This document shows, piece by piece, positions 1 through 36,953 of a stretch of 64,000 nt of DNA; within the stretch, counting starts at the first letter, position 1, and the number at the start of each line of letters is the position of its first letter. The notes under the pieces are model-generated. The model did no database searches, was not told the DNA's origin, and was given only the letters and a program-made list of their open reading frames with translations. This DNA comes from Pelagomonas calceolata (taxonomy: Eukaryota): the NCBI GenBank assembly GCA_918797485.1, contig CAKKNE010000002.1:2542001-2606000 (forward strand). The letters are read 5' to 3'. Both the position numbers and the translations under genes were made by a program.

Positions 1-487
1 GCACGGAGCTCATCGAGGCGTGCTTCCCGGACGACGCCAAGCGGCGGGTCGTCCTCGACCTCGTCCGCGGCTACGAGGAATTGATGGTGCTATATCGAAA
101 ACGAGAAGATCTCACGGACGTCGAGATTGCCAAAGCCGACGACCTCGCCCAGGAGACCTACCATCGGCTACTGACGGCTTTCACGGCGAAGGCCCTCACG
201 AACTACTTCCACATGATCGGCTCGGGCCACATTACTGCTTATTTGCGAAAGTACCGGAACTTGTACCGCTACTCGAACCAGGGGCAGGCGCGAACCGCGA
301 TCTTGATCGCCGCTTCCTCACGCGGACGCAGCGCGGCGGCCACTGCGGCCACGAGGCGACGCGGGCGACGCGCGTCGCCGCGCTGGGCAAGTGGATGCAG
401 CGGCGGATGATGTGGCTCACAGGCCTGGTCAAGCCCGGCGAGCTCAAGGTCATCGGCTGGAAGCAGAAGCGCGTGATAGACTGGTAA
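1..487 (+). pseudogene. 3' end of the element's DDE transposase (frameshifted copy)
   Basis: Encodes LTNYFHMIGSGH...RYSNQG and RFLTRTQRGGHCG...KRVIDW* in different frames. The FESVN segment, intact in the other copy, is scrambled near 280-310. Confidence 0.85.
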
Positions 488-495
488 ATTGTGAC

Positions 496-2133
496 TTACT
501 CTTCGTAGGCTGCGACGAGTGCATGGACTTCAGACGTTGGACGCGTGAGCGTCGGCACGTCCGCGCCGGCGACCGGGTAGGCCTCCCTAAACTCGCACGA
601 CGCCGCCGTCGCCGCCGTGATAGTGTAAACGACGCCGTCGAGCTCAAACGTTTCATCTGCAACTCCGCGACGACCGTCGCGGACGCGCGTCTTCGACGGG
701 CGCGGACGGGCTCGACGGCCGTCTCCGGCGGTGGCAACGGCGACGGCGCCGTCAGATTCGTCACGTTCGTGGCACCGGCCTCGGCGGGCGACTTGACCTC
801 GAAGCGGGCGTTGAGCTTCAATTCGCCGGTGTCGACGTTGTAAGTGCACGCCACCCGCACGAGCTTTGCTGAACTCGTCCAGCGTCGTCGGCACCCTCGT
901 CTCCTTGAAGCCGCCTTTTAGGGGTACTCGTAGACCGCGTCGCCGCGCCAAGATCCGGAACTCGCTCTCCAGGCGCACCACGTCATCGCCGCTAAGCGAG
1001 GTCCGCCGCCCGGTAGAACTGGAGGCGCGTCACGTCGGCGCCGCCTGGCCGCCCGCGCGCCACGACGCGCTTCGCCGTGAACTTCTCGATCCACATGCCC
1101 GACGAGCGAGAGGTAGGCCCAGTACAACTTCGAAACACACGTCGTAACGGTACCGCTTCTTCTTTTTCCCGCGGAGGAGCTCGCCTGACGGCATCAGCAA
1201 CGGCGACGCGCACGTTTAACAAGTCCCACAAGCCGCCATCGTCGACGGCCTGTCGTCGATCAGCGACGCGACGCGCCTGGAAGCGGTCGCAGCGCCGGCG
1301 ACGTACCATCAAACCACTGGTCGAGGGTGTAGACTCGCGCGAGGCCGTCGTAGGCACCACTTCTGGCCTTGTCCTGCGACACGACCCACACAGGCCCCAC
1401 GACGGAGGTCACCGAGACCTCTCTAGAAGTCGACGAGAGGACGACATCGCAGGTGGACGCAGTCGACCTGTTGATGTGTTTGGGCAACGCGTCGATCTTG
1501 TAGAGCTCCAAGACCTCGATCCTGAGGACGATTTGGGGCTGCAGGAAGACGACCATGCTGCCGTCCTTGAGCAACAACAGCGAGTCGCCCGAGAAGATGG
1601 GTCCGACCTTCGGGGCGAAGAACGGCGTCGTCGTCGCGCGGCGAGGACGTCCGGCGCGCTCGGGAGCGCGCGCCACCGTGACGGCGGTCTCCTCCTTCTT
1701 CACGACGAAGCGGTTCCGAGCCCTGCGCGAACGGCTGGACCTGCACAGTGTCGCCGACGACGGCAATGGCGGTGCCCTCGACGCGCTCGTCGTCGCAGGC
1801 GACGACGACGCTGTCCAGGGACTGCGGGGCGCGGTTTGTTATGGTCTGAAGGACCCGCGGCCGCGCCGCGCCGTCGCCGCGCGCGCTTCTGGGACGACGA
1901 GGGCGCTTTCCCCCGCCGTCCGCGGCGCCTCTTCAGCCCCTGTTTCTTGGGGGCGGGGTCCGGGGACGGCGGCGGCGCGCGGCGCGACCGCGCGGCGCGG
2001 GGCAGCAGCTCGGTGGGCTTTACCCAGCCGCGCGAGCGCGCCTCATCCTCGACGTACTTCTGAAGGTGGCCTGGTCCGGCGCGAGGCCCTCCAGGTACTT
2101 CAGCCTGCCCGGGGGCAGCGTATTTGCGGCCAT
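496..2133 (-). pseudogene. Second ORF of the transposon (frameshifted copy)
   Basis: Same peptide blocks as 11438-13088 (PFFAPKVGPIFSGDS..., TYNVDTGELKLNARFEVKSP, ...ALVAAYEE*) spread over several frames. Confidence 0.75.
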
Positions 2134-2448
2134 CGTCCAGTTAACTGATACCAGCAAACGACCAGTCTCTACATCTAATAAAGTCAACCAAACAAAAAGT
2201 CAACTTTGTCAAATCCCACTAGTCGGCCGTAGTGTCTAGCGTACATCGACACTAGCACTATGGAGCTTGAGCAAAAAGCTGTCTGAAGCGCGGCTGCAGT
2301 GGAAGGACACGTTACAGCGACGGGCGTCAACGCCAGAGTGCATTCACAGCGGCGGCAAACGAAACCGGTACCAGCGGCACGATTACTTTTGAGTTGGGAG
2401 AGCTGCAACAGAGCACTCTTTCACAAGCATCAGCGAGAGCAGCAAGCG

Positions 2449-3597
2449 ATGGAAAGCCTCCCCGAAGAATGCGTCGTGCACGCCCTGGGTTTCCTGGAGC
2501 TCGAGGATGTCATTGATTTCACGCGCACGACGAAAGACGCGTCCGCGTTCGTGACAAAGCACGACAAGAGCCTCTTCGAGCCCGCGCTGGAGCGGCTTCA
2601 CGCTTGGCGCCAGGGCGTCGGGCGCCTTGAAAACGAAGGACCTCCCCTCCACGAGCGCCGCGTCCTGGCGATGGACAACGTACCCTGGCGGGACCGCTAC
2701 CTCCGCGAGCGCGCCGACCTGACCAGGACCGCGATCACGCGAGATGACCTCGTCGCCCATTCTTGGCGCCTGCGCTTCCGCGAGCCGGGCGGGGGCGTGC
2801 AGGTGCGGGAGGTGCCCCCGAAGGGCTGCCGTTTCCTCTCGGACGGCATGTTTCGGCTGGAGGGCTTCCCGCCGATGGAGTGGAGCGTGGCGGAGGACGG
2901 CGACGCGGTCGTCATCTCGAACTTTCCGCCCCACCGCGTACAGCGGCGCGCGCACTACGACCACGGCTGGACGCTCGAGAACAAGAACGTGATCCTGTGG
3001 TCGGTCGACGAGATGTCCCCGCACTGGGCGCGCATGAGCAGTCGCCACGCGGCCGCCGCCGCGAAATTGTCCGGCAACCGCCACGCGCGTGAAGCTCGAG
3101 AGTTGCTCACGCGGGGCGGCGTCTTCGAGCGCGCGGGGCGGCACGACCGGGCGCGCATCGCCTTCATGGACGCCCTCGCCCACGCGGGCGGGACGCTCGC
3201 CCACCTTCCGCTCGGCGCGACGGGCTACCTGCCAGAGGACCCGCTTGCCGAGGACTTCGAGCGCTACCAAACCGACCCCGGCGCCATGGTCGTCGAACTG
3301 CAAGAATGCTACCAGCTGGAGACGCTCTGGCACGAGCGCAACAATAGGTTGTACGCGCTACTCTCGCTCGCCCGCGCCGCGCTCGAGACGGGCGAGGCGC
3401 GCCAGGCGCTGGACGCGGCCCGACGTGCCGCAATGAACGTCCTCCACCAGGGCGACTTTCACGGACGCGCGGAGTGCATCCGGGACGTCGAAGACCTGCG
3501 CGCGCGCGCGCTCCTGGCGTTGTCCGAGGAGCAGTCGGCGCCTCGGCCGCGGAGCGAGAGCCTCCTCGCCCAGGGGCTGGAGGGCCTCGGCGTCTAG
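2449..3597 (+). CDS. F-box-like protein with C-terminal helical/TPR-like region
   Basis: Starts MESLPEECVVHALGFLELEDV (F-box pattern LPxExxxxxxxFL); long open frame with typical GC3-rich codons. Confidence 0.65.
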   Translation: MESLPEECVVHALGFLELEDVIDFTRTTKDASAFVTKHDKSLFEPALERLHAWRQGVGRLENEGPPLHERRVLAMDNVPWRDRYLRERADLTRTAITRDDLVAHSWRLRFREPGGGVQVREVPPKGCRFLSDGMFRLEGFPPMEWSVAEDGDAVVISNFPPHRVQRRAHYDHGWTLENKNVILWSVDEMSPHWARMSSRHAAAAAKLSGNRHAREARELLTRGGVFERAGRHDRARIAFMDALAHAGGTLAHLPLGATGYLPEDPLAEDFERYQTDPGAMVVELQECYQLETLWHERNNRLYALLSLARAALETGEARQALDAARRAAMNVLHQGDFHGRAECIRDVEDLRARALLALSEEQSAPRPRSESLLAQGLEGLGV

Positions 3598-3723
3598 TCT
3601 AACTGTGCATTTTTTACCAGCCCTGGGGTAGGTCGTGCGGATGCACACGTTCTTGTCGCGCGGTTTCAAATTGGGCTAGGCTTGTGCCCGGCAGTATGTA
3701 CAGCGACGTCGGGAAGGGGAGTT

Positions 3724-5499
3724 TTACGACCGGCGGCTCAGCCGCAGCGCGGCGATGAGGCCGCGGTTCGGATTGACGGCGCCCGTCGCGTCCTCGCGAC
3801 ACTTCGGGCATTGGATTGCGCCGTCGGCCTTGCGGAGCGCGGCGACGCACGTCCGGCAGATTTCGTGCGCGCCCGAGCACGGCAGGACCATGGGCGCGTG
3901 GACGCTCGTGTCGTAGAGCTCGCAGCAGACGACGCACTCGAGGTCCAAGTCGTTCTCCTCGGCCTCATCGAGGTCGAGGGCGTCGAGGGACAGGGGCGGG
4001 CTCGGCGTCGGCGACGCCCGCCGCGGCGGCGAGGTCTGGAGGAGCTGCGCGACGGCGTCGGCGTCGGGCTCGAACGCCTCGAACGCGCGCATCGCCTCCT
4101 CCGCCGCGGAGACGTCCTTCGTTTCTTGCCAGGCGTTTGTGGTCTCGATGGACCGCGGCGATGGCGACGGCGCGGTCGCCACGGCGGACCACTCTTGCGC
4201 CGGGAGCGGCGCGCGCGCCGGCGGCGGCGGCATGAGCAACGGCGACGGCGGTAGATCTTGCGCGGCGGGCGCCGGCGCGCGCGGCGGCGGCGGTGGATCT
4301 TGCGCGGCGGGCGCCGGCGCGCGCGGCGGCGACGGCGGGGCGGCGCGCGCCGGCGGCGGCGGCATCGCGGGCCAGTCTTGCGGCGCGGGCGCCGGCGCCG
4401 CGGCCACGAACTCCGGCGGCGGGCGCGGCACGGCCGCGGCCGTCTCCTTTGCCAGCTGCGCCTGGACGGCGAGGCGCGCGCGGCGGCTCGCCGCGAGCGC
4501 GTCGGCCGCGAGGACCGACGGCGTCACCGAGGCGCACGCCAGCAGGTCCGGCGTCACCACCTCGATCACCGAGGCCTCCGTGCCGCGCTCTTGCCCGGGC
4601 GGCGGCGTGCCCGCGCGGACGCGCAGGCCGTGGCCCGCGCCGCGGCCGCGCACCGCGACCTTGAGCGCGAGCGACGGCGAGAGCCCGATGGCCTTGACGG
4701 ACGCCGCGTGGCGCGGGTGCGCGTCGAGGAACACCTCGGCCGATGATATGTCCAGGGACGGCTTGTCGCCCGCCGCGAGCCACGTCGCGAGGTCCGCCAG
4801 GAGGCTGTCCTGCGCGGCCGGGGCCCACTCCGTGTGCTCCCAGGGCGTGTCGTCATCCTCGTCCTCGACGTTGACGCCCTCGAAGCGCACGTCAATGGCC
4901 TTCGTGCGCTTGCGGTACTCCGTAAGGGCGAAGGACACGCGGTCGCCGCGGCGCGGCTCGAAGTCCACATCTACCAAATGCATGAAGACGTCCTCGGCGC
5001 CGGTCGTGTCGCGCCGGATGAAGCCGTAGGTCTGGCGGAGGAAGTGGATGAAGCCCGTGAAGCGCTCGCCCGTCGAGCCGTTCTGCGACGTGAGCTGGCG
5101 CCGGCGCCGGCCGCCGATCTTCGGCGCGGGCAGCCGCTCGGCGCGGCTCCGCCGGAGCTGGCGCAGGTACGCCGGCGTCTCGCCCGGCGGCACGGGCGAA
5201 GAGGGCGTGATGATCGGCGTTAATGTTATGGGCGTCCGCGGGCTCAGGTAGCCCGTCGCCGTCGACAGCGAGCCGGGCGACTCGTCGCCGTCGCCGATCT
5301 GGTACTCGTAGAACGACAGGCCCGAGTCCTGCCGCCCGTAGGAGTCCGCGCGCGTGTAGGAGTCCGCGCGTAAATAATTTCGGTTGCGCAGCGCCTGGAC
5401 CTGTTCTGCGGTGAGGCTTGCGGCTGCCGCGTCGCCAGGAAACGCCGGCGGGACGGGCGGGAGCTCGCCGGGCTGGTAGGGTTGCGACGAGGGGTTCAT
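3724..5499 (-). CDS. Cold-shock (OB-fold) domain + Pro/Ala-rich linker + C-terminal RING finger protein
   Basis: FTGFIHFLRQTYGFIRR...EDVFMHLVDV (CSD RNP1/RNP2-like) and CVVC...LPCSGAHEICRTC...CPKCRE (RING-HC). Confidence 0.75.
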   Translation of the reverse strand: MNPSSQPYQPGELPPVPPAFPGDAAAASLTAEQVQALRNRNYLRADSYTRADSYGRQDSGLSFYEYQIGDGDESPGSLSTATGYLSPRTPITLTPIITPSSPVPPGETPAYLRQLRRSRAERLPAPKIGGRRRRQLTSQNGSTGERFTGFIHFLRQTYGFIRRDTTGAEDVFMHLVDVDFEPRRGDRVSFALTEYRKRTKAIDVRFEGVNVEDEDDDTPWEHTEWAPAAQDSLLADLATWLAAGDKPSLDISSAEVFLDAHPRHAASVKAIGLSPSLALKVAVRGRGAGHGLRVRAGTPPPGQERGTEASVIEVVTPDLLACASVTPSVLAADALAASRRARLAVQAQLAKETAAAVPRPPPEFVAAAPAPAPQDWPAMPPPPARAAPPSPPRAPAPAAQDPPPPPRAPAPAAQDLPPSPLLMPPPPARAPLPAQEWSAVATAPSPSPRSIETTNAWQETKDVSAAEEAMRAFEAFEPDADAVAQLLQTSPPRRASPTPSPPLSLDALDLDEAEENDLDLECVVCCELYDTSVHAPMVLPCSGAHEICRTCVAALRKADGAIQCPKCREDATGAVNPNRGLIAALRLSRRS

Positions 5500-6065
5500 C
5501 GCAAGTGCTTGGGCGCTGATTTTTATCTTGGGCGGCGCCGCGGGGGCTCGGAGAGCCTTGGTCAGCTTTTCTCAGGTGTTGGATTTGGGCCACGGCGTGA
5601 AGTTTCGTAGCTTACGAGGCCCCCACCGTCTGTAGTAGTATCTGTGAGGCCTTGGCGCCGCCGATGGTGGGGATGCGCGTGCGCGAGCTCGACCAAATGG
5701 GCTGAGTGAAAGCAATTCCCATGAAATCGGCAAGCAAGTCCGTGACGCGTCTGAACTGCCGAGAGGGAGAGAGAGAAGTCGCTGGGTTGCTCTGATCAGC
5801 ACGAAAAATCGACCGCCGCGCCGCCGCGCGCGCCGCGCATCTCGCCGCGCAAGTTAAGGGGCAAACCCATGGAAGAAGGGTCGCCACTCGCCTGAATTTA
5901 CTCCGGCGGGACCACAAGGATCAACGCACGATACCAGCCGGAGCCTGGTCACAACATAGTAGGCTGTCGCTGCTCAGCTGGTGATGTTGGAGGCGACTGC
6001 CGCGCGCAGGCTCAATTCTACCCAACGCGGAGGCCGTGGTGCACGCTACCACGCGGAGGCGCAGC

Positions 6066-7296
6066 ATGGCACCGCACGCACAGGCTGCCCGCGGCGCCGC
6101 CCTCTACGCGCCGTGTGAGGACGAGCTCAACACTTGGCCGAGAGGCCGTCCGGCAGACGGCAGCGACGACGATTACGGATTGAAGGCCGACGGCGCTTTA
6201 TCGCAAAAAGCAGCCGAGCTCCTCGACGCGTGCGACGCGGAACCGGACGGCGACCGCCGCTTGGCCCTCGCGCGGCGCGCGTACGCCGCGGCCCCAACGG
6301 CCAAGAACGCGCGGCGCGCCTACGCCCTCGCGCTCGCGACGTCTAAAAGGTGGGGCCTCCTCGCCGACCTTTTAGAAAAGTGGGACATCTCCACAACGTT
6401 CGGCGACGGCGACGTCGCGTCGCGCGCCGCGGCGTGCGGCCTGCGCTTCGCGTCGCGCTACGGCGCCGCGGAGCTCGCCGCGCCCGCCGACGTGGCCCTG
6501 GGCGCGGCGCAGGCGGCCGCGAAGCGCGCTGGCGACGCTTTTTTTGCGGTCGGCCACTTCGCCGAGGCGGCCGAGGCGTACGGCCGCGGCGTCGGCGTCG
6601 CCGCACACCCGACGCTCTCCTGCGACCGCGCCGCCGCGCTCGTCGCCGCGGGCGACTTTCAAGGCGCGCTGGCGTCCTTCGACGCGGCCGTGGACGCGAA
6701 CCCGTCATGCTGGCGGTGCCGCTGGGCGCGGGCGCGGTGCGCGGGCGCCGTCGCGGTTCTTTTCGGCGTCCTGATCCATGCGAAGGCGCCAACCGATCGA
6801 CGACCGTACGCAGGCGCAAGGCCTCGCCCTCGACGATAACGACGACGACGAGCGCCGCGTCGAGACCGCGCGCGCGCGCGCCGAGGCCGCGGGCAAGGTC
6901 GCGTTGGAGGACCTCGCGCGGCTCCGGGGCGTCGACTTTTTCGCCGCCGTCGCGGCGTTACGCGCGGCCGCGACGGCCTCCGTCGCCGCGCTCCAAAAGC
7001 GGCGGCGCTCGGCGCAAACGCGCGCGCGGGCGCGTCGCCGGGAGGCGCGCACGACCTACGCTCGGACGGCGCCCGCCCGGACCGTCCGGTCGCACTACGA
7101 CGTCCTCGGAATTTCGAGAGACGCCGGCGCCGCCGCGGTGCGCCGGGCCTACCGGAAAAAGGCCCTAGCGACGCACCCGGACAAGACCAACGGCGAGTCC
7201 GAGGCCTTCCTCGCCGTCGGCGAGGCGTTCCGCGTCCTTTCCGACCGGGGCCTCCGGGAGGCGTACGACGCGGAGCTCGACCTTCTTTTGTCGTAA
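6066..7296 (+). CDS. TPR + DnaJ domain co-chaperone; one intron ending at 6813 (donor 6732 GC or 6750/6756 GT)
   Basis: TPR-like AKRAGDAFFAVGHFAEAAEAYGRG...DRAAALVAAGDFQGALASFDAAVDANP in the first frame; J-domain SHYDVLGI...RRAYRKKALATHPDK...REAYD in the second frame after ...cgcag. Confidence 0.75.
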
Positions 7297-7446
7297 CTGT
7301 GCTACGTATAGTGCCAACACTCGGGGCGACGGCGTATGAGGTTCGGGGGCCGGGCGTACGAGGCCTCGTCGGCTTCCGCTGCTAGGTGGCATAGCTCTTA
7401 GCAAAGCAAATCAGGCATCGAGGACGGAAGGACTGACACAAAACTT

Positions 7447-8034
7447 TCAAGTTACCGCGAGCGCCTCCATCGCTTGGGCGAGCTCCTTTTCCAGCTCGCC
7501 CCGGCGCGCGAGCTTCTCAGCCTGCTGCGCGTTGGGCTCGAGTCCCGCGGCGACGCGCGTCTCCAGCTCCGACACGGCCTTGAGCTTCTTCGTGAGGCCC
7601 TTGGCGCGCCGCCGCAGCTCGTCGCCGGCGTCCGCCGCGGGCGCCGGCGCCTCGGCCGCTTCCGCTGTCTCGGCGACGGGCGCGAGCGGCGCGGCCTCGC
7701 GTGCCCGCCGGCGCGCGGCGGCGCGACGCGCTGAGCGGCTCCCGGCCGGCGCCTCGCGCTTGAACAGCGGCGGCGGCAGCGGCGGGCCGGCGGCTGCTCC
7801 TGGCGGGTTCGCGGGCCGCCGCGCGCGCACCGCGTACTTCTTCACCTCGTCCTGCGGCACGAAGGACCGCCAGCTGCCGTCGGGCCGCTGCTCGGCGCGC
7901 ACTCTTAAATCTTTCCGTCGCGTGCCGTCCGGCCGCAGCGAGCCGGGGACGACCACGGACTTGTCGGCGTAGACGTCGCGGCCGTCCTGGTCCTTGCCCA
8001 CGATTTCTTGTGTTTTTGCTGTCATGGCGCTCAT
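7447..8034 (-). CDS. PYM1: Partner of Y14 and Mago (PYM/WIBG family)
   Basis: N-terminal SLRPDGTRRKDLRVR...FVPQDEV..Y and C-terminal LTKKLKAVSELE...NAQQAEKLARRGELEKEL. Confidence 0.8.
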   Translation of the reverse strand: MSAMTAKTQEIVGKDQDGRDVYADKSVVVPGSLRPDGTRRKDLRVRAEQRPDGSWRSFVPQDEVKKYAVRARRPANPPGAAAGPPLPPPLFKREAPAGSRSARRAAARRRAREAAPLAPVAETAEAAEAPAPAADAGDELRRRAKGLTKKLKAVSELETRVAAGLEPNAQQAEKLARRGELEKELAQAMEALAVT

Positions 8035-8284
8035 AATGCTCTCCCTGTTTATTTGCTGCAGAGCTCTGTAATACGTGCGTCACTTGGGCGCAGCTCGTTG
8101 TGCCTTGTGTGGCGAGTCTGTTGCAGATTCCACGCCTACTCAGGCACGAGAGGCGAGCAGTTCAGCGCATCCCATCTCATGAGCTGCTTGCTCTAGAGTG
8201 TCTTACCTGTACAGGCCGCTAGCACGAGCCGTGCGCTCAACATAACAGTCGACACGGGATTTCGCCAATATTAATACATTAAGA

Positions 8285-9046
8285 TTACTCACCGCCCATC
8301 GCCTTCGCCGCGTGCCCCGCGCCCCGCCGCCGCAGGCCGAGCCGCCGGTTCCGCAGCTGCACGAGGGGCGAGTACTCGCCGCGCTTCTCGTCGGAGACGT
8401 AGTAGCGCATCAAGCGCGGCGGCGGCCGCGCGCGCCGCGGCATTTGTTCAAATTTGTGCGGCTTCAGCAACGCCCGCAGCGCGAGGCGGTTGTAGTGCGC
8501 GCAGGTCACGGTGCCGCCCGCGTCCTCCACGGCTTTGATCGCCGACGCCGACGCGCGCGACACCTCGATGTGCACTGATGACGTGATCTCGCCCTCGCCC
8601 AACAACTTGACGCCGGCCGTGCTCCCCTTGAGGTTCACGAGGCCGCTCGTGTTCAGGTCGCGCATCGTCAGCATCTCTGTGTCAGAGGGCTCCAGCCTTC
8701 CATTCTCGATCCACTTCTGCAAACTCCCCACGTTCACGACGTCAAAGGCCTCTCTTCTAGACGTGAAGCCGACCTTCGGCAGGGCTTTGTGCAGTGGCGT
8801 CTGCCCGCCCGCGAACCCGGGCCGCACGGAGCCGCCCTGTCGCGCCTTCGTCCCCTTGTGGCCGCGGCCCGCCGTCTTGCCCTTGCCACTACCAATACCG
8901 CGGCCCACCCGGATCTTGGGGCGCTTGTTGGAGCCGGGGTTTGGTGCGAGGTCGTTGAGCGCCATCGGCGGCTCCGCCGACGAGAGCGCGCGAGCTGGTC
9001 GCGTCCGCAGCGCTGCGGCGCGTCCGGCGCGGGCGAATAGGTGCAT
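8285..9046 (-). CDS. MRPL15: Mitochondrial ribosomal protein uL15m
   Basis: RVGRGIGSGKGKTAGRGHKGTKARQGG...GFAGGQTPL, GVKLLGEG, ASASAIKAVEDAGG; Arg/Ala-rich N-terminal presequence. Confidence 0.9.
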   Translation of the reverse strand: MHLFARAGRAAALRTRPARALSSAEPPMALNDLAPNPGSNKRPKIRVGRGIGSGKGKTAGRGHKGTKARQGGSVRPGFAGGQTPLHKALPKVGFTSRREAFDVVNVGSLQKWIENGRLEPSDTEMLTMRDLNTSGLVNLKGSTAGVKLLGEGEITSSVHIEVSRASASAIKAVEDAGGTVTCAHYNRLALRALLKPHKFEQMPRRARPPPRLMRYYVSDEKRGEYSPLVQLRNRRLGLRRRGAGHAAKAMGGE

Positions 9047-9442
9047 GGTTTCTGCGGTCGCGTCGACGACGTAAGCGGCGGCGAGAGCAGCGCAGCGATT
9101 GTGCAAGGGCAGTGGAGCGGCCTAGGCGCAAATCACAGCTCACAGACCTCAACGTAGGCGTTGCGAGATGATAATCAGCAACCCTAGACTCGCAGAGAGG
9201 GGCTTATCGTGCTGCACGACCAGGTTTTGGGTGCGGCTGGGCTTGCTAGTGTCTTACAGGACGCTAGCTCCACTCTGTCGATCGCGGCAGTCGCTAGCCC
9301 GTCCGTCTGGCTGGTAAAACGAGCCCGCGGATACGTGCATTAGTCCTCTATACGTGTAACAAAACGACAAAGCATCAAACGCTGCGCTAGTCGTGTAGCT
9401 CTCACAGCGAGTCAGCACCTGCCCACAGCGAAGCGCAAAGCG

Positions 9443-10240
9443 ATGCTCCGCACCGCGCTGAACGCCCCGCGAAGGCTGGCCCGGCGCCTGCGCTTCTTCG
9501 CCGACGACGCCGACCCGACGGAACTGCCACAAAAACCGCCGCCCGTGTGCGTGCCCCGCGCGGCGCGGCGCGCGTACGCGGACAAGCTCGCCGAGCAGCG
9601 GCGCGGCTGGGTCGCCGCCGTCGAGCGCGAGCGGGCAGAGAAGCGAGCCGAGGAGACGGCCGCGCGCGAGCGCCGCGAGGCGGCGCGGCGCGACAAGAAG
9701 GCCGCGCGCGAGGCCCGGGCCGCGGCCGCGCGCGAGCGGCGCGAGGCCGAGAAGGCCGAGGCGTCCGTGAGGCGGCGCGACCGCATCGGGCGGGCGAGCG
9801 CGGCCCTCGACGGCCAGCGGGCCGAGCGCATCGAACGGCAGGAGCGCCTCGTCGACGCCCTCGAGGACGAGGCGAAACATTGGCTCGTGGACGACGCGAC
9901 GATCGACGCGAAGATCACGCCCGAACTTTTCTCGGGGCCGCCGGCGTCGACGGGCCTCGTGACGCGCGAGTCGCACGCGTGGTGGCGCTACGCTGCCCAG
10001 GTAGACGGCCGGCCCGACCTCTCCGCCGAGGACGAGCTCTTGCTGAATCGGGATGAGGAGGCGACGCGCGTCGCGACGACGACGGAGCGGCTCATTTGGA
10101 CGCAGGCCGCGCACCCGCGCGAGTTCCACCGCGTTTTAGATGATGGCGCGGCCATCGCGGAGGCCATCGCCGACCTGGACGTGCAGCACCTCAAGCCGCG
10201 AGTCTTCCGGCCGCGGGGGCCGCCCCCTTCTAAAAGTTAG
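9443..10240 (+). CDS. Coiled-coil protein with mitochondrial-type presequence (possibly mS26-like)
   Basis: MLRTALNAPRRLARRLRFF presequence, long E/R/A helix, LEDEAKHWL...IDAKI. The family assignment is weak. Confidence 0.5.
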   Translation: MLRTALNAPRRLARRLRFFADDADPTELPQKPPPVCVPRAARRAYADKLAEQRRGWVAAVERERAEKRAEETAARERREAARRDKKAAREARAAAARERREAEKAEASVRRRDRIGRASAALDGQRAERIERQERLVDALEDEAKHWLVDDATIDAKITPELFSGPPASTGLVTRESHAWWRYAAQVDGRPDLSAEDELLLNRDEEATRVATTTERLIWTQAAHPREFHRVLDDGAAIAEAIADLDVQHLKPRVFRPRGPPPSKS

Positions 10241-10274
10241 GTAGGTTTCTTTCTAGTTTCTTCTCTTCAACAAC

Positions 10275-10871
10275 TTACTGGACGTACGACTGCGCCCGGC
10301 AGAGCGGGCATAGCACGGCGGTGCCACGGCCGCGCGTCCGTCGGCTCGACGCCGCTGCTGCGAGCTCCTGCATGCAGGCGGCGTGGAACTGATGGCCGCA
10401 TGCGAGCGCCGGCGCGTCGTCGAGGTCCTCCAGGCAGATCGGGCACCTTCTGGTAGGCTCGGCCGTAGGCCGCAAAGTGGCTTGGGCCAGGGCTAGTTGA
10501 CGAGCTTGACGAGCTTGACGATCTATTTTCTTATAGCGGCACTTACATCGCAAGCTCTTGACAACATTCTTGCAGCTAAGGCTGCAGTAGTAATCCGTCA
10601 GACCCTCTCTCTTCAAAGAGGCGCTCACTTGCAAGAGGAAGGCCCTCTTCTGTGATTGGTCCGTCGTCAGCTCATTATTATTATTGCAGTCATCCAACGA
10701 TGCAAGTGAATTCTCTAGCATCTCACCCTTCACCAAGACAACGCCCGCGAAAAAAAACGCGCAGTTATTCATTTTATCTCGGCAACACGCGAGGTACGCT
10801 ACTTTCTTGAAGAAAAAAAAAGGAGCTTCATTTGATGAAAAGCCCCCGCAGTTGCGCCGCACCAAACTCAT
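10275..10871 (-). CDS. RING finger-containing ORF or terminal exon (5' part uncertain, AT-rich)
   Basis: CPICLEDLDDAPALACGHQFHAAC...CPLCR at the 3' end; the upstream ~400 bp has atypical composition. Confidence 0.45.
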   Translation of the reverse strand: MSLVRRNCGGFSSNEAPFFFFKKVAYLACCRDKMNNCAFFFAGVVLVKGEMLENSLASLDDCNNNNELTTDQSQKRAFLLQVSASLKREGLTDYYCSLSCKNVVKSLRCKCRYKKIDRQARQARQLALAQATLRPTAEPTRRCPICLEDLDDAPALACGHQFHAACMQELAAAASSRRTRGRGTAVLCPLCRAQSYVQ

Positions 10872-10925
10872 GGTCTACACAGCAGAGGGCCTTCCAGGCG
10901 CACCGCAGCTCCACATTTTCATAGC

Positions 10926-11249
10926 TTACCCGGCGGCCTTCGACGAGGACAGCTTCGAGCTCGACAGTTTCCCGCCGGACCGTTTGGACGACGAGACGTT
11001 GGCCTTCTTGGTCTCCGAGATCTTCGAGGACATCTTGTCCATGTACTCCTGCGTCATGCTCGCGATCTTCGACGTGTACCTCTTAATAGACCAGCGGAGG
11101 ACGGGGTAGAGGAAGAGCGCCGCGTAGAAGAGGTAGATGAGCATCTGGGCCTCGGCCTTCACCAAATTCTCGACGTCTATTTCCACTTCTTTGGCTGCCT
11201 TGACGGTGGGGAGGAGGCATGCTGCGACGAGGGCTTGGTGCGGGGCCAT
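10926..11249 (-). CDS. Small putative membrane protein or first exon
   Basis: Signal-like N-terminus plus hydrophobic MLIYLFYAALFLYPVL. The frame ends at G|GTAAGC, a good splice donor, so it may continue downstream. Confidence 0.4.
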   Translation of the reverse strand: MAPHQALVAACLLPTVKAAKEVEIDVENLVKAEAQMLIYLFYAALFLYPVLRWSIKRYTSKIASMTQEYMDKMSSKISETKKANVSSSKRSGGKLSSSKLSSSKAAG

Positions 11250-11437
11250 GGTGCCGCCTCTCTGCTTATGTCCGGCCCGGGTGCTGAGCCCGGGGCAGCC
11301 CTACGGCCGCGACGTCGCGTTACGCTGGAGCCACTCCACTACGGCCGACTAGTGGGATTTGACAAAGTTGACTTTTTGTTTGGTTGACTTTATTAGATGT
11401 AGAGACTGGTCGTTTGCTGGTATCAGTTAACTGGACG

Positions 11438-13088
11438 ATGGCCGCAAATACGCTGCCCCCGGGCAGGCTGAAGTACCTGGAGGGCCTCGCGCCGGACCAG
11501 GCCACCTTCCAGAAGTACGTCGAGGATGAGGCGCGCTCGCGCGGCTGGGTAAAGCCCACCGAGCTGCTGCCCCGCGCCGCGCGGTCGCGCCGCGCGCCGC
11601 CGCCGTCCCCGGACCCCGCCCCCAAGAAACAGGGGCTGAAGAGGCGCCGCGAGACGTGGGAAAAGCTGCCCTCGTCGTCCCAGAAGCGCTCGCGGCGCGG
11701 CGGCTGGCGCGGCGCGCCGCTGGTCCTTCAGACCATAACAAACCGCGCCCCGCAGTCCCTGGACAGCGTCGTCGTCGCCTGCGACGACGAGCGCGTCGAG
11801 GGCACCGCCATTGCCGTCGTCGGCGACACTGTGCAGGTCCAGCCGTTCGCGCAGGGCTCGGAACCGCTCGTCGTGAAGAAGGAGGAGACCGCCGTCACGG
11901 TGGCGCGCGCTCCCGAGGCGCTCGAGGACGTCCTCGCCGCGCGACGGACGCCGTTCTTCGCCCCGAAGGTCGGACCCATCTTCTCGGGCGACTCGCTGTT
12001 GCTCAAGGACGGCAGCATGGTCGTCTTCCTGCAGCCCTCGTCGTCCTCAAGGATCGAGGTCTTGGAGCTCTACAAGATCGACGCGTTGCCCAAACACATC
12101 AACAGGTCGACTGCGTCCACCTGCGATGTCGTCCTCTCGTCGACTTCTAGAGAGGTCTCGGTGACCTCCGTCGTGGGGCCTGTGTGGGTCGTGTCGCAGG
12201 ACAAGGCCAGAAGTGGTGCCTACGACGGCCTCGCGCGAGTCTACACCCTCGACCAGTGGTTTGATGGTACGTCGCCGGCGCTGCGACCGCTTCCAGAGCG
12301 CTGCGTCGCGTCGCTGATCGACGACAGGCCGTCGACGATGAGCGGCTTGTGGGACTTGTTAAACGTGCGCGTCGCCGTTGCTGATGCCGTCGGCGAGCTC
12401 CTCCGCGGGAAAAAAAAGAAGCGGCGGCCGTTACGACGTGTTTCGAAGTTGCGCTGGGCCTACCCTCGCGGCGTCGGGCATGTGGATCGAGAAGTTCACG
12501 GCGAAGCGCGTCGTGGCGCGCGGGCGGCCAGGCGGCGCCGACGTGACGCGCCTCCAGTTCTACCGTTTCGAGCGGTTCTCGCTTAGCGGCGATGACGTGG
12601 TGCGCCTGGAGAGCGAGTTCCGGATCTTGGCGCGGCGGCGACGCGGTCTACACGAGTAGCGCCCCTAAAAGGCGGCTTCAAGGAGACGAGGGTGCCGACG
12701 ACGCTGGACGAGTTCAACAAGCTCGTGCGGGTGACGTGCACTTACAACGTCGACACCGGCGAATTGAAGCTCAACGCCCGCTTCGAGGTCAAGTCGCCCG
12801 CCGAGGCCGGTGCCACGAACGTTTAATCTGACGGCGCCGTCGCCGTTGCCACCGCCGGAGACGGCCGTCGAGCCCGTCGCGCCCGTCGAAGACACGCTGT
12901 CCGCGACGGTCGTCGCGGAGTTGCAGATGAAACAGTTCGAGCTCGACGGCGTCGTTTACACTATCACGGCGGCGACGGCGGCGTCGTGCGAGTTTAGGGA
13001 GGCCTACCCGGTCGCCGGCGCGGACGTGCCGACGCTCACGCGTCCAACGTCTGAAGTCCATGCACTCGTCGCAGCCTACGAAGAGTAA
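11438..13088 (+). pseudogene. Element ORF2, ~550 codons, unknown function, frameshifted; convergent with the transposase
   Basis: ATG 11438 (MAANTLPPGRL...), blocks continue across frames to ...ALVAAYEE* at 13088; present in both copies. Confidence 0.7.
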
Positions 13089-13096
13089 GTCACAAT

Positions 13097-16000
13097 TTAC
13101 CAGTCTATCACGCGCTTCTGCTTCCAGCCGATGACCTTGAGCTCGCCGGGCTTGACCAGGCCTGTGAGCCACATCATCCGCCGCTGCATCCACTTGCCCA
13201 GCGCGGCGACGCGCGTCGCCCGCGTCGCCTCGTGGCCGCAGTGGCCGCCGCGCTGCGTCCGCGTGAGGAAGAAGCGCTTGATCAAGTGGTTCACGCTCTC
13301 GAAGCCCTGGTTCGAGTAGCGGTACAAGTTCCGGTACTTTCGCAAATAAGCAGTAATGTGGCCCGAGCCGATCATGTGGAAGTAGTTCGTGAGGGCCTTC
13401 GCCGTGAAAGCCGTCAGTAGCCGATGGTAGGTCTCCTGGGCGAGGTCGTCGGCTTTGGCAATCTCGACGTCCGTGAGATCTTCTCGTTTTCGATATAGCA
13501 CCATCAATTCCTCGTAGCCGCGGACGAGGTCGAGGACGACCCGCCGCTTGGCGTCGTCCGGGAAGCACGCCCCGATGAGCCGTGCCGACGTTAGCAAAGA
13601 TCTTCCGGGCGCGGCCGCAATTCAACGAGATCTTCTCGACGGAATCTTCGTCCTTGGAGAGCGGCGCCGTCCACTTGCCCTCGCGGCCGTTCGGGCAGCC
13701 AAGCCTTCGTTCTAATCACCCTCCAGCGGCCGCAGCTTCGCCAGGGCCACGCTCTTCTCGTAGATCAAATAAATTGTTGAGGATGAGCCGCAGCTGCTCG
13801 CGCGTCCGGTTTTCTAAATGCAAGACGCACGGGACCATATGCTCGACCAGGGAGATGAGCGCATCAGAATTTGGCGTGGCGTGTTCTAATTGCGCTTGAA
13901 GTTCGTAATATTGGTCAACCAAGCCAGGCGCTGCGTCAGCTGCTCGACGCGCGAACCGAGGTTGCCCGTCACCGCCAGGCCGAAATCAACAAGACAATCG
14001 TTCACGACCAGCGAAAATTGCGTTTTTGTGCTGGGGTCGCAGTTCGACAGTCGAACTTTGCGTAAAACCCGTTTTGGTTGGGGTTTTCCAATTCCAAGCA
14101 ATGCTGACCGCAATAAGCAGCGAAGCGCGCGTGCAAGTGGGCCGAGGTGCCGCCCGCATCGAGCCCAGCCTCCGCGGCGAGCTCGCGCAGCTGCGCCGCA
14201 CTTAAAGTCTTGGCCTCGCGCATGTAGCGGTAGGCTGGGGGCAGCTCCCCTCTGAGCTCCGTGAGCGCAGCGGCAGCCGTAGCGCGCCACTCGTCTACGG
14301 CAGCCGGCGTCGACATCTCCGCGTGGTAGCACACTAACCGACCCGCTGCTCTGCAGACGTCGCAAAGGTCGTCAACTACCTTGGGCGTCGTCATCTGCCT
14401 GTTGGTCTGCGCGCAACAATAACACGGCCGCGCGTTCTCCGACGTCCCAGTCGCGAAGCCCTTCTTCGACACCGTCTGGAGGTTGGCCATGTCGCCCGAG
14501 CAGACGTAATCAACGTGAACGGCGCGGCCCTCTGCCTCTGACTGGTAGACACCATCGGTTTGCGCCGTCGCCGCTGTACTGAAGTGATCCGTCACGTCGT
14601 CTAAAGCTTCGTACAGGGCATGGCTCTCGTGGCCAACGGCTAACGTAGTAATATGAACCCGATCAGGCGACTGGAAGTCGGTGATAGGCTTGCCAGTGAT
14701 CGGGTCGACCGCGCGGCTGTCGTTGACGTGGATCCCTTGCATCGTAAAGTCGTCGCTTTTCGTGATGTTGCTGCCGTCTTGCGTGCCTCTGATCCTCCGC
14801 GGATCCGCGGGACTGCGTCCAGTCTCAAGGAGCCCATACTGCTTTCCGATGACGTCGAGGACCGCGCCCGTCGCAATGCCGACCGCCTCGTAAGTGCCGT
14901 CGCCCGCGGACGTTTCCGTAACCGAAACCTTGTGGCCATCAGCAACTCTCTCGACCAGCTTGGCTGTTTCCTGGAGCGCACTGTGGGGAATAACAGCATC
15001 ACGTGCTTGCCCAACGTCTCCCCTGAGCGCAACGAGCCGCCCGCTCTCTGGCCCGCATGGCGCTCGCAGCGTAGTTCCCCGTCATCTCCACGTCCCGGTC
15101 TTCAGTAGTTCGGCTGGAGAGAAAATCTCCTGGAGGCGCCGGTACTCCGCGCACGCAAAGTGAGCTCGCACGAGGCCAATCTCCCCCCGCCCGCGAGAGT
15201 GTTGACACCACGCGTAGTCGGCTAGGAGACGCAGACACTTCTGTTGCTTTCTTTTGAGCGTACCACCACAAATTCTACTGAGAAAGTCGCCGACGGCGTG
15301 GACCACGGGCCACAACGACTCGCCTTCGAAGTCCGAATCCGGCGGCGGCTCCTCCGGTAAATACGCAACACGAGAACCCAGCCAGGCGCCTCGAAGCCGT
15401 CGAAGGCCATAAAGCTCGAGGTTGAGCTGGCTTTGTTGTTTTTTCAAATCGGCGACTTCAGTTTTTCTGCGCGTCGAGTTGCCGCTGCAACTCGCGCGTG
15501 TTTGTCCGGAACCCCTCCTCCAATCGCCGCCGCTCCTCGTCTAGCCCGCCGCCCGCGCGTCGCTCACAGTCTATTTTCCCGCGTTCTTTCTCTTGTGAAA
15601 ATTTGGCTCTAAGGCGATCAACGTCGCGCCGTCGTGCCGCTCTCTCCGCGGAGAGCGCGTTCGCCTCGCGGTCCAGAGAGAAGCCGTCTTGCCGAGTCGG
15701 TGGCGCTCCTCGCGCCACTGCGTCCTGTCTGTCGCGTAGCTCGCGCGTGGGCGCGACGGCCGCGGCGCGCGCGGCTTCCGCGCGGTCGCACGCCGCGAGC
15801 GCGTCTTCGGCGCGCTGCTCTAGGGCCATTAAATCTCGTCGTGTCACGGGCCGTGGTACTGGCGCGACTTCGTCGAGGTCGACCACGTCTTCGTCCGGCA
15901 CGAGCAGCTCAGCATCATCAACCGGATCCACGCGCGTGACCTTCTCGCCGGGCGTCGTGTACATCCTAGGCCGCGGGACGTCGGGCGCTTCTCGCCGGAC

Positions 16001-16388
16001 CGCGCCGTCGTCTTCGGCGGCTTGCGCGGCGCTCGGGCGGCTGCTTCCTCTTGCACTGGAACTTCTCCTCTGGTCGCGGGAACGGCGGCTCGACGCCATC
16101 GGGGTACTCCTCGAGCGCGCGCGCGCGGTTCTGCACGGCTGGCAAGAAGTAGATGCACCGCGGCTCCTTATCAATTTCGTACGACTTCCGCCAGTACCGA
16201 CCCTCGGCATCAAAGGTCACCCTTGTCCTCGCGGTGGGACCGAGCGCCGCGTTGAGCGCGGCGCGCGTCGCCACGCCGTCCATCTCCATGAGGAGCTCGT
16301 CGTCGCTGAGGAAGACGTCCCCCTCCGGCATTGGCAGGGCGTCGAAGATGTGCTGATCGTCCGCCGCGGGCTTCCACACCCGCGGCAT
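13097..16388 (-). pseudogene. DDE transposase, ~1,090 codons, several frameshifts; RAG1/Transib/Chapaev-like core
   Basis: Ordered motifs: IRGTQDGSN (D 14776-78), VCSGDMANL (D 14491-93), CYCC (14413-24), PCVLHLENR (H 13818-20), LTNYFHMIGSGH (H 13376-78, H 13358-60), SNQGFESVNHLIKRF (E 13298-300). Confidence 0.82.
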
Positions 16389-16843
16389 CGTGGCAGCACC
16401 AACGTTCTCGGGCTGTGAACAAGTTATTAAAACTTGATTAGAGTATGCTGCGCAGCAGCTGCGTGTGGGCTGCCTCCCCCAATCAAGTTTTAATGCGATG
16501 CAGCTGGACCGAGATCGCAGCGCTTTTAGCAGCGCCGCTGGGCGCTCAGCTACCCCCTGGTTTTCCTACAAGTTACTGCAATACATAATGTAACTAGGGG
16601 GGCTTGGTATCCTACCAGTAGGCCGTAGTGCTGCGGCTCCGCAGCAGAGCTACCCGCACGCTGCGACGTTGGACCGCAGGCGCCTTCGCACACGCTAGAC
16701 GCCTGCGGTGATATCTCGGACCAAGCCTGGGGCCCGCCGTCGACCTATAGCTTCGTCTGTTGGTTTGCCCGGCGGAGCAGGACAAAACGGGCAGCCCATA
16801 CGCGCCGCTCCCGCGGTTTGCTGGGGCACAAACGACTCGCATC

Positions 16844-27544: not shown

Positions 27545-27829
27545 GATTCTTCGGCGGTCTCGCGCGTGATTATAGGCGCCCGGCGCGCGGCGACCAGTAA
27601 TATGAGATATGATCTATCCGCAGGACTGGACAGGCAAGCGCGCACGTTGGTTGACCAACCAATGAGGCGACGGCCGTCCAATAAAAACCCACGAACAACC
27701 CCGCTCGCGCTAGGGGCGCGTAACCAAGCCCAATACGTCGAGCTAGCGGCCTGTAAGACACTAGCAAGCCGCAGAGGTCGCAGATTTGGACCTAATTAGT
27801 GGTTATACATTGCATCTCTGCGCGCAAGC

Positions 27830-29800
27830 ATGGCCCCACAGCTGCCAGCATCCGCGCTCGCAGCGATATCTGGCTACATTGATCGGGAAGAGCCAGCTGA
27901 GCCACCAGCCCCAGCAAGGCCCGCGGCAGCCGCGGCCGCCGCTGCGCCTCCACAGCTGCCGGCAAGTGCTCTCGCAGCGATTTCGGGATACATCGACCGC
28001 GAGGAGCCGGCTGCACCACCGCTGCCGCCGCCCGCACCGGCTGCGCCGCCACCGGCGCGCGACCGCGAGGAACAAACACTCAGAGAAATCGAGCCGCTCG
28101 ACGCCTCCGCCGTCTTCGCGCTGCTGCACCCGGACGGGCCCGGCTACGCGGTCGTCGACGGCGTGTTGGGACAAGAAACGGCGCGGAGGGCGGCCCGCGC
28201 GGCGGCCGCCGCACGAACACAATTGAAGCGCGCGCGCGTCGGCCGCGGCGACGCGCGGCGCCTCTCCGACGAGCGCACGGACGAGGCCGCGTTTTTGGAT
28301 GAGAGGAGCCAGCACCCCGATTTGCAAGTGCTCTGTCACGCGCTGCGGAAACTGCGGTCCTCGCTTTGTGTAGGAGGCGCCTGGGACGACAAGGCCGCCG
28401 AGTTACGTTTGGATGCAACAACAACCTCGACGCAGCTCGCCTGTTATCAGCCGGGCGGGCGCTACCGGCGCCACGCGGACGCGTTGTCCGATGACGACGC
28501 GCGGCAGCGCGACGCGCTGCGCGGCAAGCCTCTGTTAACGCGCAATCGCCGGATCACGGCGGTCTATTACTTAAATGAAAACTGGAATCGTGAAGATGGC
28601 GGCGCGCTCCGCATCTATGCCGATACATGGACGCCCGACGCCCAACCTTTTGATGTTTTACCTCGATTGGACCGCCTCGTTTTGTTTAGGAGCACTCTAC
28701 AACATGAGGTCCTCGTGACGCGCAGGGAGCGCCTCGCGCTGACGCAGTGGTGGTACGGCCGCATCGACGATGATAACGAGCGCGTGCCGTGGCGGCTGCC
28801 GGCGCCGGGTAGAGCCCTCTCTGGTTTATCGACCGAGGGGCGAATTTTTGTTTCCGTGGCCGCGTACCGAGATCCGGAGACGGAGCGGACGCTGCAGCAC
28901 TTGTTCGCCACCGCGAAGAACCCGAAGCGCGTCCGTGTGGTGGTCGTGCAGCAGTACGACTGTCTGGAGGGGAGCGATGATGATCTGGTAGGAAGGCTAT
29001 ATAACCACGAGGCGGAGGCGCGCGTGACGCGGATACGCGTCGATTTTCGCGACGCGAACGGCCCGTGTCCCGCAAGGGCGTGCGCGCTGCGTCGCTTGAC
29101 TGATGAAGACGACTTCGTCCTCCAGATCGACAGCCACACGCGCTTCCGCAGCCACTGGGACGCGTATCTGATCGATCAATTAGCCAAGTGTGATAGTAAG
29201 GAGCCCGTGCTGACCGCCTACCCCGCGGACTACGACAAGGATTCAGCTGCCCTACCTTCCGACGTGCGGCCAACTCTGTTAGTCCCCTCGGGCTTCGACA
29301 AGGACGGCGTGCTGCGGATCAAGGGCCGGCGGCTCGCGCGGGTTCACGAGGAACCGATCCCGTCGCCGCTCTGGTGCGCCGGGTTCTCCTTCTGTCGAGC
29401 TAAAGTGTGGCGCCGCGTCACATACGAGCCGCTTCCCCATTTATTTTTTGGCGAGGAGCTACTGCACGCCGCTCGATTGTTTTGTAGTGGCTGCGACTTC
29501 TTCGCGCCGCCCGAGCAGGTGATCTTCCACCGCTGGTCGCGGAGCGGACGGCGGACGCTCGCCGAGGACCAGCCTCGTCGAAACGCGGCGGCCGCGCGCG
29601 GCCGCGCCTTCGAGCTGCTCGAAACAATTGAAGGGCCGCGGTCGCTCGCCGCGTTCGAAGCAAGGGCGGGCGTTGATTTGAAAAAGCGCGTCTTATTGCC
29701 CGGCGCCGACCGGGGCGGCCTGTCCCCTGAAGCGTTCGCCGACGGCGCGTCGTCCTCCGCGGGCGCGCAGGTCGCGGCGCTGCTGGGGCTGAAGCTTTGA
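27830..29800 (+). CDS. Fusion of 2OG-Fe(II) prolyl-4-hydroxylase (PhyA/EGLN-like) and GT60 GlcNAc-transferase (Gnt1-like)
   Basis: YRRHAD (28472), RRITAVYYLNENW..DGGALRI, PRLDRLVLFRS..HEVL..RLALTQW; then IFVSVAAYRDPE, GPCPARA, LQIDSHTRF..WD (29129), VLTAYP, WCAGFSF, LFFGEE. Confidence 0.88.
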   Translation: MAPQLPASALAAISGYIDREEPAEPPAPARPAAAAAAAAPPQLPASALAAISGYIDREEPAAPPLPPPAPAAPPPARDREEQTLREIEPLDASAVFALLHPDGPGYAVVDGVLGQETARRAARAAAAARTQLKRARVGRGDARRLSDERTDEAAFLDERSQHPDLQVLCHALRKLRSSLCVGGAWDDKAAELRLDATTTSTQLACYQPGGRYRRHADALSDDDARQRDALRGKPLLTRNRRITAVYYLNENWNREDGGALRIYADTWTPDAQPFDVLPRLDRLVLFRSTLQHEVLVTRRERLALTQWWYGRIDDDNERVPWRLPAPGRALSGLSTEGRIFVSVAAYRDPETERTLQHLFATAKNPKRVRVVVVQQYDCLEGSDDDLVGRLYNHEAEARVTRIRVDFRDANGPCPARACALRRLTDEDDFVLQIDSHTRFRSHWDAYLIDQLAKCDSKEPVLTAYPADYDKDSAALPSDVRPTLLVPSGFDKDGVLRIKGRRLARVHEEPIPSPLWCAGFSFCRAKVWRRVTYEPLPHLFFGEELLHAARLFCSGCDFFAPPEQVIFHRWSRSGRRTLAEDQPRRNAAAARGRAFELLETIEGPRSLAAFEARAGVDLKKRVLLPGADRGGLSPEAFADGASSSAGAQVAALLGLKL

Positions 29801-36545: not shown

Positions 36546-36953
36546 TCCTATATTGTGTCGTTATGCAAGAGATTACTTTGTTTGCGCGTTTTTTGTTTGG
36601 CTGCCCCAACTCTGGCAGAGCGCGCTTTTGGAGAGTGTTCCTCAATATATCCTTCGGAATGACGCGGCACCATTACGGGGCGTCTAGGGACGAGTCTAAG
36701 GACGGATCTATGCTTCCGCTTGGAACTCCTAGAAGCAAGTTCCTGGGCCAAGGAGCATCGCTCCCAGAGGCTGCCCAAATCACGTCAACCGTCGCATAGA
36801 ACGCGACCACGACGCTGCAATTTGTGCAAAAGACACCAGCAACCACGTCTCCAGCAACCGCATCCAGAGGCGTGCCGTGGCGACGGCGGCGGGGACGACG
36901 GAAGCTGCAGACACAGCAAAACACTCGCTACACACAGCAAAACACTCGCTGCA

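Follow-up and report, generated by a model that had tools for sequence, protein, structure and literature searches.

Organisation of the element and its copies

We analysed a 64,000-nt window of the Pelagomonas calceolata genome (GCA_918797485.1, contig CAKKNE010000002.1, positions 2,542,001-2,606,000, forward strand) which contains a transposon at 11337..16630 (positions are those of the window throughout). The element is real, and comprises 22-bp CACTACGG inverted ends around two convergent genes, encoding a DDE transposase and a partner protein (Table 1). A preliminary description of this DNA had reported imperfect terminal inverted repeats (TIRs) beginning CACTACG around two open reading frames (ORFs) with stop codons 8 bp apart, and its coordinates hold. 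The two TIRs are identical at 19 of 22 positions, the start codons of the transposase and partner lie at 16388 and 11438, and 8 bp separate the partner stop (13086-13088) from the transposase stop (13097-13099). The TIR pattern was matched three times in the window and in none of 100 shuffles; a second copy, not mentioned in the preliminary description, has its terminus at the third match (2213-2234, minus strand). The termini, CAC..GTG, are of the CA..TG type typical of the CMCT clade (CACTA, Mirage, Chapaev, Transib), which is defined by CxxC and H-x-H motifs and, in most members, CA..TG ends (excerpts of PMC12730594). Subterminal repeat arrays were absent from the repeats listed for the element. 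Its ends read CACTACG and form a simple 22-bp TIR, in which neither a bipartite structure nor a heptamer like CACA(G/A)TG was found. A 29-bp imperfect inverted repeat (16426-16494) is present just 5' of the transposase ATG, within an antisense RNA. The genes flanking the element are ordinary eukaryotic algal genes, and P. calceolata gene models were the closest protein matches.

Table 1. Features of the element and its second copy in the window
Feature	Position	Strand	Evidence and remarks
Second element copy, inverted, cut by window edge	1..2234	-	Holds partner gene and transposase 3' end; blastn
TIR, partner-gene end	11337..11358	+	22 bp, CACTACGGCCGACTAGTGGGAT; X1, X2 and X5 unitigs begin exactly here
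Partner gene	11438..13088	+	547 aa intact (P0161); window frameshifts are assembly errors; homologous to clade-A partners
BAH-like segment of partner (weak)	11960..12292	+	Alignment; suggested by relatives
DDE transposase gene	13097..16388	-	1,106 aa intact (P0158); RAG1-like predicted fold
H1014-x5-H1020 and catalytic E1040 (NYFH...GH...QGFE)	13298..13378	-	Spacing 5/20/26 in 62/62 members
Antisense polyA RNA over transposase	14108..15000	+	Peak ~1,750 (X21); 5' ends ~14108-14116; stranded raw reads X21, X24
Weak SAP-like insert within insertion domain	14134..14211	-	Pfam SAP E 0.02, below cut-off
CxxC, C661/C664	14413..14424	-	62/62; predicted zinc ligands together with the H-x5-H pair
Second catalytic Asp, D638 (SGDM)	14491..14493	-	Sequence; D in 62/62
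First catalytic Asp, D543 (TQDG)	14776..14778	-	Sequence; D in 62/62 aligned members
Second antisense polyA RNA, transposase 5' part and promoter	15788..16580	+	Peak ~730
TIR, transposase end	16609..16630	-	Reverse complement CACTACGGCCTACTGGTAGGAT; unitig stops exactly at this end

Both ORFs are frameshifted in the window, while the corresponding database proteins are intact. In the short-read contigs of X1 and of X2, the element is assembled as a single 5,316-nt unitig whose ends fall exactly at 11337 and 16630; in both runs it differs from the window by the same 33 substitutions and 56 gap positions. The X5 contigs carry the same differences across 11337-16293, and the RNA reads agree with the short-read differences wherever these are listed. 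Because the short-read contigs, the RNA reads and the intact proteins all disagree with the window, the ORF breaks are assembly errors. The published assembly is Nanopore-based and short-read polished, which fits errors within repeats, and the element is not described in the available passages of that paper (excerpts of 10.1101/2021.10.25.465678). The reading of the locus as a degenerate pseudogene was ruled out, as the reads restore both frames.

Sequencing depth, which is a rough guide only, exceeded the flank depth ~8-14-fold in X1, X2, X5 and X11 (208 vs 14.6-17.6 in X2, 88.5 vs ~10 in X5 and 43.7 vs 5.4 in X1), and NCBI gene models of the element were present on two chromosome-size contigs. 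As a single unitig represents many copies, the copies are near-identical, which would imply recent spread. The element is a young multi-copy family of P. calceolata and, judging by copy identity, is likely still active. The second copy in the window was 95.9% identical over 2,271 columns (blastn), with mostly small indels as differences; it lies 9 kb from the element, with a left flank ending ...GCTAGA. An inverted copy at this distance fits local hopping, and could permit inversion of 2235-11336. A scan of viral and prokaryotic contigs with the TIR pattern gave 0 matches, and a metagenome scan found relatives but no Pelagomonas copy.

The preliminary description had noted that the element lacks a clean target-site duplication (TSD), which was confirmed at this one site. 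Both element-flank junctions were matched by X2 and X11 contigs without a difference; these contigs do not span the element, and the flanks could therefore be mismatched through recombination with the inverted copy or through a misjoin. A short inverted repeat is present in the flanks of this one site (GGAGCC-4 bp to the left, 4 bp-GGCTCC to the right). A TSD of a single bp (C) would fit this site, but about four X2 right flanks start with C compared to one left flank ending in C. None of the relatives was complete, with both ends and a TSD; the partner end of locus L012 starts CATTACGG, which is suggestive only. For CMCT elements, TSDs of 2-5 bp have been reported (excerpts of PMC12730594), and TSD length varies inside Transib (excerpts of bioRxiv 10.64898/2026.08.26.747230).

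Motifs, family and predicted fold of the transposase

The series of D, D, CxxC, LH, H-x5-H and E motifs listed in the preliminary description is present in full in P0158 (D543, D638, C661/C664, H863, H1014/H1020 and E1040). H863, H1014, H1020 and E1040 are, like the two aspartates and C661/C664, invariant in the 62 long members of the family, as is a second CxxC (C681/C684) that follows the first. The 26-residue distance between the first H and E, also reported previously, was held in every member. Apart from E962, the residue numbers of RAG1 are general background or stem from the preliminary description, as do the motifs of CACTA and Chapaev. The CMCT motif set is thus invariant in 62/62, with an H spacing of 5, one above the published range (excerpts of PMC12730594). 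Four of the 62 members carry D in place of the C of 'PCxLH'. The SAP domain was not matched at E <= 0.02 among 49 family proteins.

A total of 837 relatives were identified at E <= 1e-3 among 1.84 billion representatives, the best 150 of which were drawn on. Apart from its own cluster, the species-named relatives among 30 clusters were Pelagophyceae CCMP2097, Fragilaria crotonensis and Seminavis robusta, and the family includes diatom and pelagophyte members. A tree of the transposase C-terminus (43 rows; L030, L067 and L075 left out; no outgroup) placed loci with the two types of partner described below, A and B, to either side of a single branch (100/100); Pelagomonas grouped with type A. 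The clade-B members read NEGxEAFNK. Termini of the form C(A/G)TATG.AA.ACT with varied flanks were identified in clade B (L025:89, L027:116, L060:314, L062:107, L065:110, L071:122, L073:133, L076:356 and three more), and in this clade an intron or stop breaks up many of the transposase ORFs around their midpoint. The family scans showed no relative in viral or prokaryotic contigs, and P0005 had no match in the ESM Atlas. A search of a viral fold library showed nothing at E <= 0.001. The Pfam transposase families were not matched by 49 members (E <= 0.02) nor by 13 more (E <= 1), although Pfam may miss divergent non-plant EnSpm elements.

Whether the element is a divergent member of a catalogued CMCT lineage (EnSpm/CACTA, Lanisha, ESTA or Chapaev), whose partner would have a TnpA-like role as in CACTA, can be weighed on these data. 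CACTA elements have a CACTAC terminus, a DxxH motif and a TnpA accessory protein, the gene for which is co-transcribed. The element likewise ends in CACTAC, its CTC/CTG flanks could be read as a 3-bp TSD with one mismatch, and the D at 'PCxLH' in the four members recalls the CACTA motif. However, the lack of a Pfam transposase match in both sets of members, the H-x5-H in 62/62, the convergent genes, the absence of subterminal repeat arrays among the repeats listed and the clade-B ends, which are not CACTA, all argue otherwise, and we consider this explanation plausible but unlikely. Kolobok identity was ruled out by the CAC..GTG ends and the lack of TTAA flanks.

The transposase is predicted to adopt the RAG1/Transib fold. 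An AlphaFold2 model of the C-terminal 698 residues had a pLDDT (predicted local distance difference test) of 91, and Foldseek matched it to RAG1 (E 6.5e-9), HzTransib (E 4.5e-8) and BbRAG1L, all far ahead of Hermes (0.09); among the matches listed at E <= 1e-3, these three were found exclusively. VIA Z scores against 48,161 chains were 20.2 for RAG1 (root-mean-square deviation 4.0, 440 aligned), 19.4 for BbRAG1L and 13.2 for HzTransib, followed by the P element (10.7), ISCth4 (8.3) and Hermes (7.6). The structure search, which the preliminary description had proposed, thus supports its view of an algal DDE transposon of the RAG/Transib/CMC radiation. The special closeness to RAG1, Transib and ProtoRAG that it had suggested was not borne out. 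Identity in the structural alignments to RAG1, BbRAG1L and HzTransib was just 10-14%, a sequence search of the PDB with the protein or an 89-sequence family profile returned no chain of the three at E <= 10, and there is no 5-bp TSD here. Furthermore, the transposase had no sequence-level match to RAG1, Transib, CACTA or Plavaka profiles. To our knowledge, no CACTA, Chapaev, Plavaka or ESTA transposase structure has been solved or is present in the PDB, and RAG1 is therefore the expected best match for any CMCT member. ESTA was likewise recognised through its likeness to RAG1 (excerpts of PMC12730594).

A true RAGL or Transib transposon near V(D)J ancestry, with a degenerate RAG2, is very improbable and largely refuted. 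It would account for RAG1 as the best structural match, ahead of HzTransib, for the CAC ends and convergent genes, and for the clade-B NEGxEAFNK, which is close to the RAG1 motif quoted in the preliminary description; a RAGL element is also present in the related alga Aureococcus (PMC9435367). However, there was no HMMER match to RAG1, BbRAG1L or HzTransib, the structural identity compares with an average of 26% shared by RAG1L and Transib (PMC9435367), no partner matched kelch, and neither the 5-bp TSD nor the RAG-type heptamer or bipartite TIR is found here.

The partner gene and transcription of the element

The metagenome scan included 77 transposase loci, of which 39 extended at least 1 kb past the transposase stop. 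A convergent partner was present in all 39 (20 of type A, 19 of type B), many of the metagenomic loci being near-duplicates, and 6 of the 38 shorter loci still matched a partner. The partner profiles were built from 24 of the 39 loci, so that the other 15 matches are independent. The concern that ORF2 might be absent from most members, raised in the preliminary description, is answered by these counts.

The type-A partner is a protein of ~400-550 aa, with a stop codon often 7-102 bp from that of the transposase, and forms a conserved family that spans pelagophytes and diatom-like relatives, with 13-25% identity. This family includes the Pelagomonas partner (hhalign 93.5%, E 2.3e-7; hidden Markov model (HMM) E 7e-8, compared to E 1.7 for the best of 500 shuffles). 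Pfam BAH matched the N-terminal part in 2 of 11 aligned type-A segments, the best with an E of 3.4e-4 over nearly the whole model (20.9 bits vs a 30.8 cut-off). Consistent with the earlier remark that the partner lacks kelch repeats, neither kelch nor PHD was matched in any of the partners searched. PDB profile searches with the partner families gave no meaningful match, and the single-sequence fold prediction of the partner was of low confidence (pLDDT 37).

The type-B partner is a long low-complexity protein with a conserved terminal domain carrying HxD and a distal H, invariant in 13/13 type-B-like domains. HxD...H is the pattern of 2-oxoglutarate- and Fe(II)-dependent (2OG-Fe(II)) dioxygenases. 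Locus L021 carries both a type-A partner and a co-oriented dioxygenase-like gene (3397-4614). The clade-B loci (including L070:4527-5600, L052, L057, L069 and L071) and L021:3397-4614 hold a transposon-borne HxD...H family of candidate DNA or histone demethylases. The CMCT elements are known to capture TET/JBP dioxygenases (excerpts of PMC12730594). Because of the BAH hint, the replacement by a dioxygenase-like protein and the precedent of fungal TET-carrying CMCT elements, a chromatin-reading or anti-silencing role is suggested, and the partner is likely to be a chromatin-acting protein and not a subunit of the RAG2 type.

Transcription was assessed in two stranded polyA runs (X21, X24). The partner was strongly transcribed, with a sense peak of ~1,590 (X21) and RNA 3' ends at ~13100-13103; the transposase was weakly transcribed, with a sense coverage of 2-97 (X21). 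Neither of the two antisense RNAs over the transposase gene had a long ATG ORF near its start. Within 13257-13300, the sense transposase reads fall at ~13276, ~180 nt before the stop, where 10 molecules begin in X21; the counts are low. This drop may represent premature polyadenylation, removing the conserved RTQRGG tail. At 11319-11336, transcripts of the adjacent minus-strand gene, which has its ATG near 11248, start at ~11319-11335, directly next to the TIR, and the element may therefore sit in, or supply, the promoter of that gene.

The partner could instead be an obligatory transposase subunit, a separately evolved functional analogue of RAG2 in a two-protein transposase. The retention of a tail-to-tail partner in 39/39 loci with enough downstream sequence, the conservation of the type-A family at 13-25% identity and the layout, which is that of ProtoRAG (PMC9435367), would fit such a role. 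This is nonetheless quite improbable, as in the sister clade a dioxygenase-like protein unrelated to the partner has taken its place, with the catalytic core retained, and the partner RNA peak was ~16 times the transposase sense peak (X21).

Elsewhere in the window, degenerate 150-430-bp direct repeats are clustered at 55368-56706. Two divergently oriented AAA-ATPase genes sharing an inverted 180-bp segment (34842-38651) are probably an old duplication. The gene at 27800-29797 encodes a 2OG-Fe(II) oxygenase fused to an N-acetylglucosamine (GlcNAc)-transferase domain, and resembles the Skp1 hydroxylation-glycosylation enzymes.

Interpretation and comparison with known systems

The results are probably best explained by a young multi-copy two-gene transposon with a RAG1/Transib-fold transposase and a chromatin-acting partner, which belongs to a large, apparently unnamed ochrophyte CMCT lineage. 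This lineage is apparently of the CMCT clade rather than a RAG-like transposon. No description of the family was found in the literature; Repbase, Repbase Reports (Lanisha), the members of the CMCT tree (PMC12730594 supplement) and bioRxiv supplements lay outside the search and may name it. In the proposed mechanism, the transposase would bind both 22-bp ends, nick, and then form a hairpin on the flank, as in cleavage by RAG and HzTransib (excerpts of PMC10629977), after which the element would be inserted elsewhere, likely by cut-and-paste. The far more abundant partner would read or alter chromatin via its BAH-like domain, such that the copies are unsilenced or insertion is guided, and in the sister clade a dioxygenase-like protein would do the same job. 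The antisense RNA may keep the transposase output low.

Several observations weigh against this explanation. The family placement derives from motifs, profiles and ends, and not from a tree with RAG1, Transib or EnSpm; H-x5-H falls outside the H(3-4)H signature published for CMCT (excerpts of PMC12730594), and the clade-B ends start C(A/G)TATG rather than CAC, with a boundary that is sharp in 11 loci. This site has no TSD of 2-5 bp (CACTC-element-CTGCG), two read mappings showed no empty-site joint and too few separate flanks for pairing, activity is inferred from copy identity, and the two RNA runs are from one sample. Near-duplication also applies to the partner count, for which 38/77 loci were too short, and one of the 15 independent matches was weak (L041, E 0.009). 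The BAH score was under the Pfam cut-off, the Pelagomonas protein on its own had no BAH match and the BAH structure was not matched in the PDB profile search. Similarly, the dioxygenase call is motif-based, the type-B domain having no Pfam or PDB match.

A broader proposal, which we put forward as a tentative possibility, is that of a RAG-fold lineage of superfamily rank which occurs widely across ochrophyte algae and remains active in a eukaryote that is among the most abundant in the ocean. Such a lineage would have evolved a ProtoRAG-like tail-to-tail design independently, with epigenetic partners that can be exchanged, either a BAH-like reader or an eraser resembling 2OG-Fe(II) dioxygenases, and may insert without target duplication. 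The favoured interpretation, a CMCT lineage with a chromatin-acting partner, would extend the clade from which RAG1 arose by a large, apparently unnamed branch, of which intact and probably active copies are present in an alga that can be cultured. The element shows that two convergent genes can be arranged around a RAG-fold transposase with a partner unrelated to RAG2, and the question of why such enzymes recruit second proteins thus becomes testable. The BAH-like/dioxygenase-like swap suggests that transposons of algae encode means to control host silencing, and the intact element could become a genetic tool for pelagophytes and diatoms.

The element shares with EnSpm/CACTA the CACTAC terminus, the CMCT motif order and an accessory protein (TnpA in CACTA), but differs in having no Pfam CACTA-domain match, an H-x5-H, no clean 3-bp TSD and an accessory gene that is convergent rather than co-transcribed. 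With Transib (HzTransib), it shares the predicted fold, the D-D-E with a CxxC/HH zinc site and the CAC start; however, Transib is a single gene, whereas the element has a larger core, the second invariant CxxC, H-x5-H and no heptamer like that of recombination signal sequences. The fungal TET/JBP-carrying CMCT elements (EnSpm, ESTA and PlavakaB; excerpts of PMC12730594) resemble clade B and L021 in their dioxygenase-like cargo, but differ in their hosts, in that the clade-B domain has no Pfam or PDB match, and in that the Pelagomonas element carries a BAH-like partner. Kolobok (Kol0 with KolX) is also a two-protein DDE transposon present in diatoms, but has RR..YY ends, a TTAA TSD and a C/DxxH signature, and KolX has a Cys-rich ballast fold (excerpts of PMC9587614; further comparison literature, in excerpts: PMC4411706, 10.1101/2021.09.26.461848, 10.1101/2024.10.30.620910).

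Finally, the element has in common with ProtoRAG and other RAGL transposons (BbeRAG1L-RAG2L; AanRAGL) a predicted RAG1-type catalytic fold, CAC ends and a second gene within the element and, with ProtoRAG, the convergent genes. It differs in its partner, which has no kelch or PHD signal and belongs to another conserved family, in the lack of sequence-level similarity of the transposase, in having no 5-bp TSD here and in its simple 22-bp TIR. In AanRAGL of Aureococcus, the RAG2L gene is upstream and co-oriented, the ends read CACACCC and the TSD is 5 bp (PMC9435367, the supplement of which makes no mention of Pelagomonas, Fragilaria, Seminavis or Thalassiosira). Of the ProtoRAG-like architecture in the preliminary description, the convergent two-gene layout is supported, whereas a special closeness to ProtoRAG is not. 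As AanRAGL differs in gene order, ends and TSD, and there is no close RAG link, the tail-to-tail layout most likely arose in parallel to that of ProtoRAG, with an unrelated partner.

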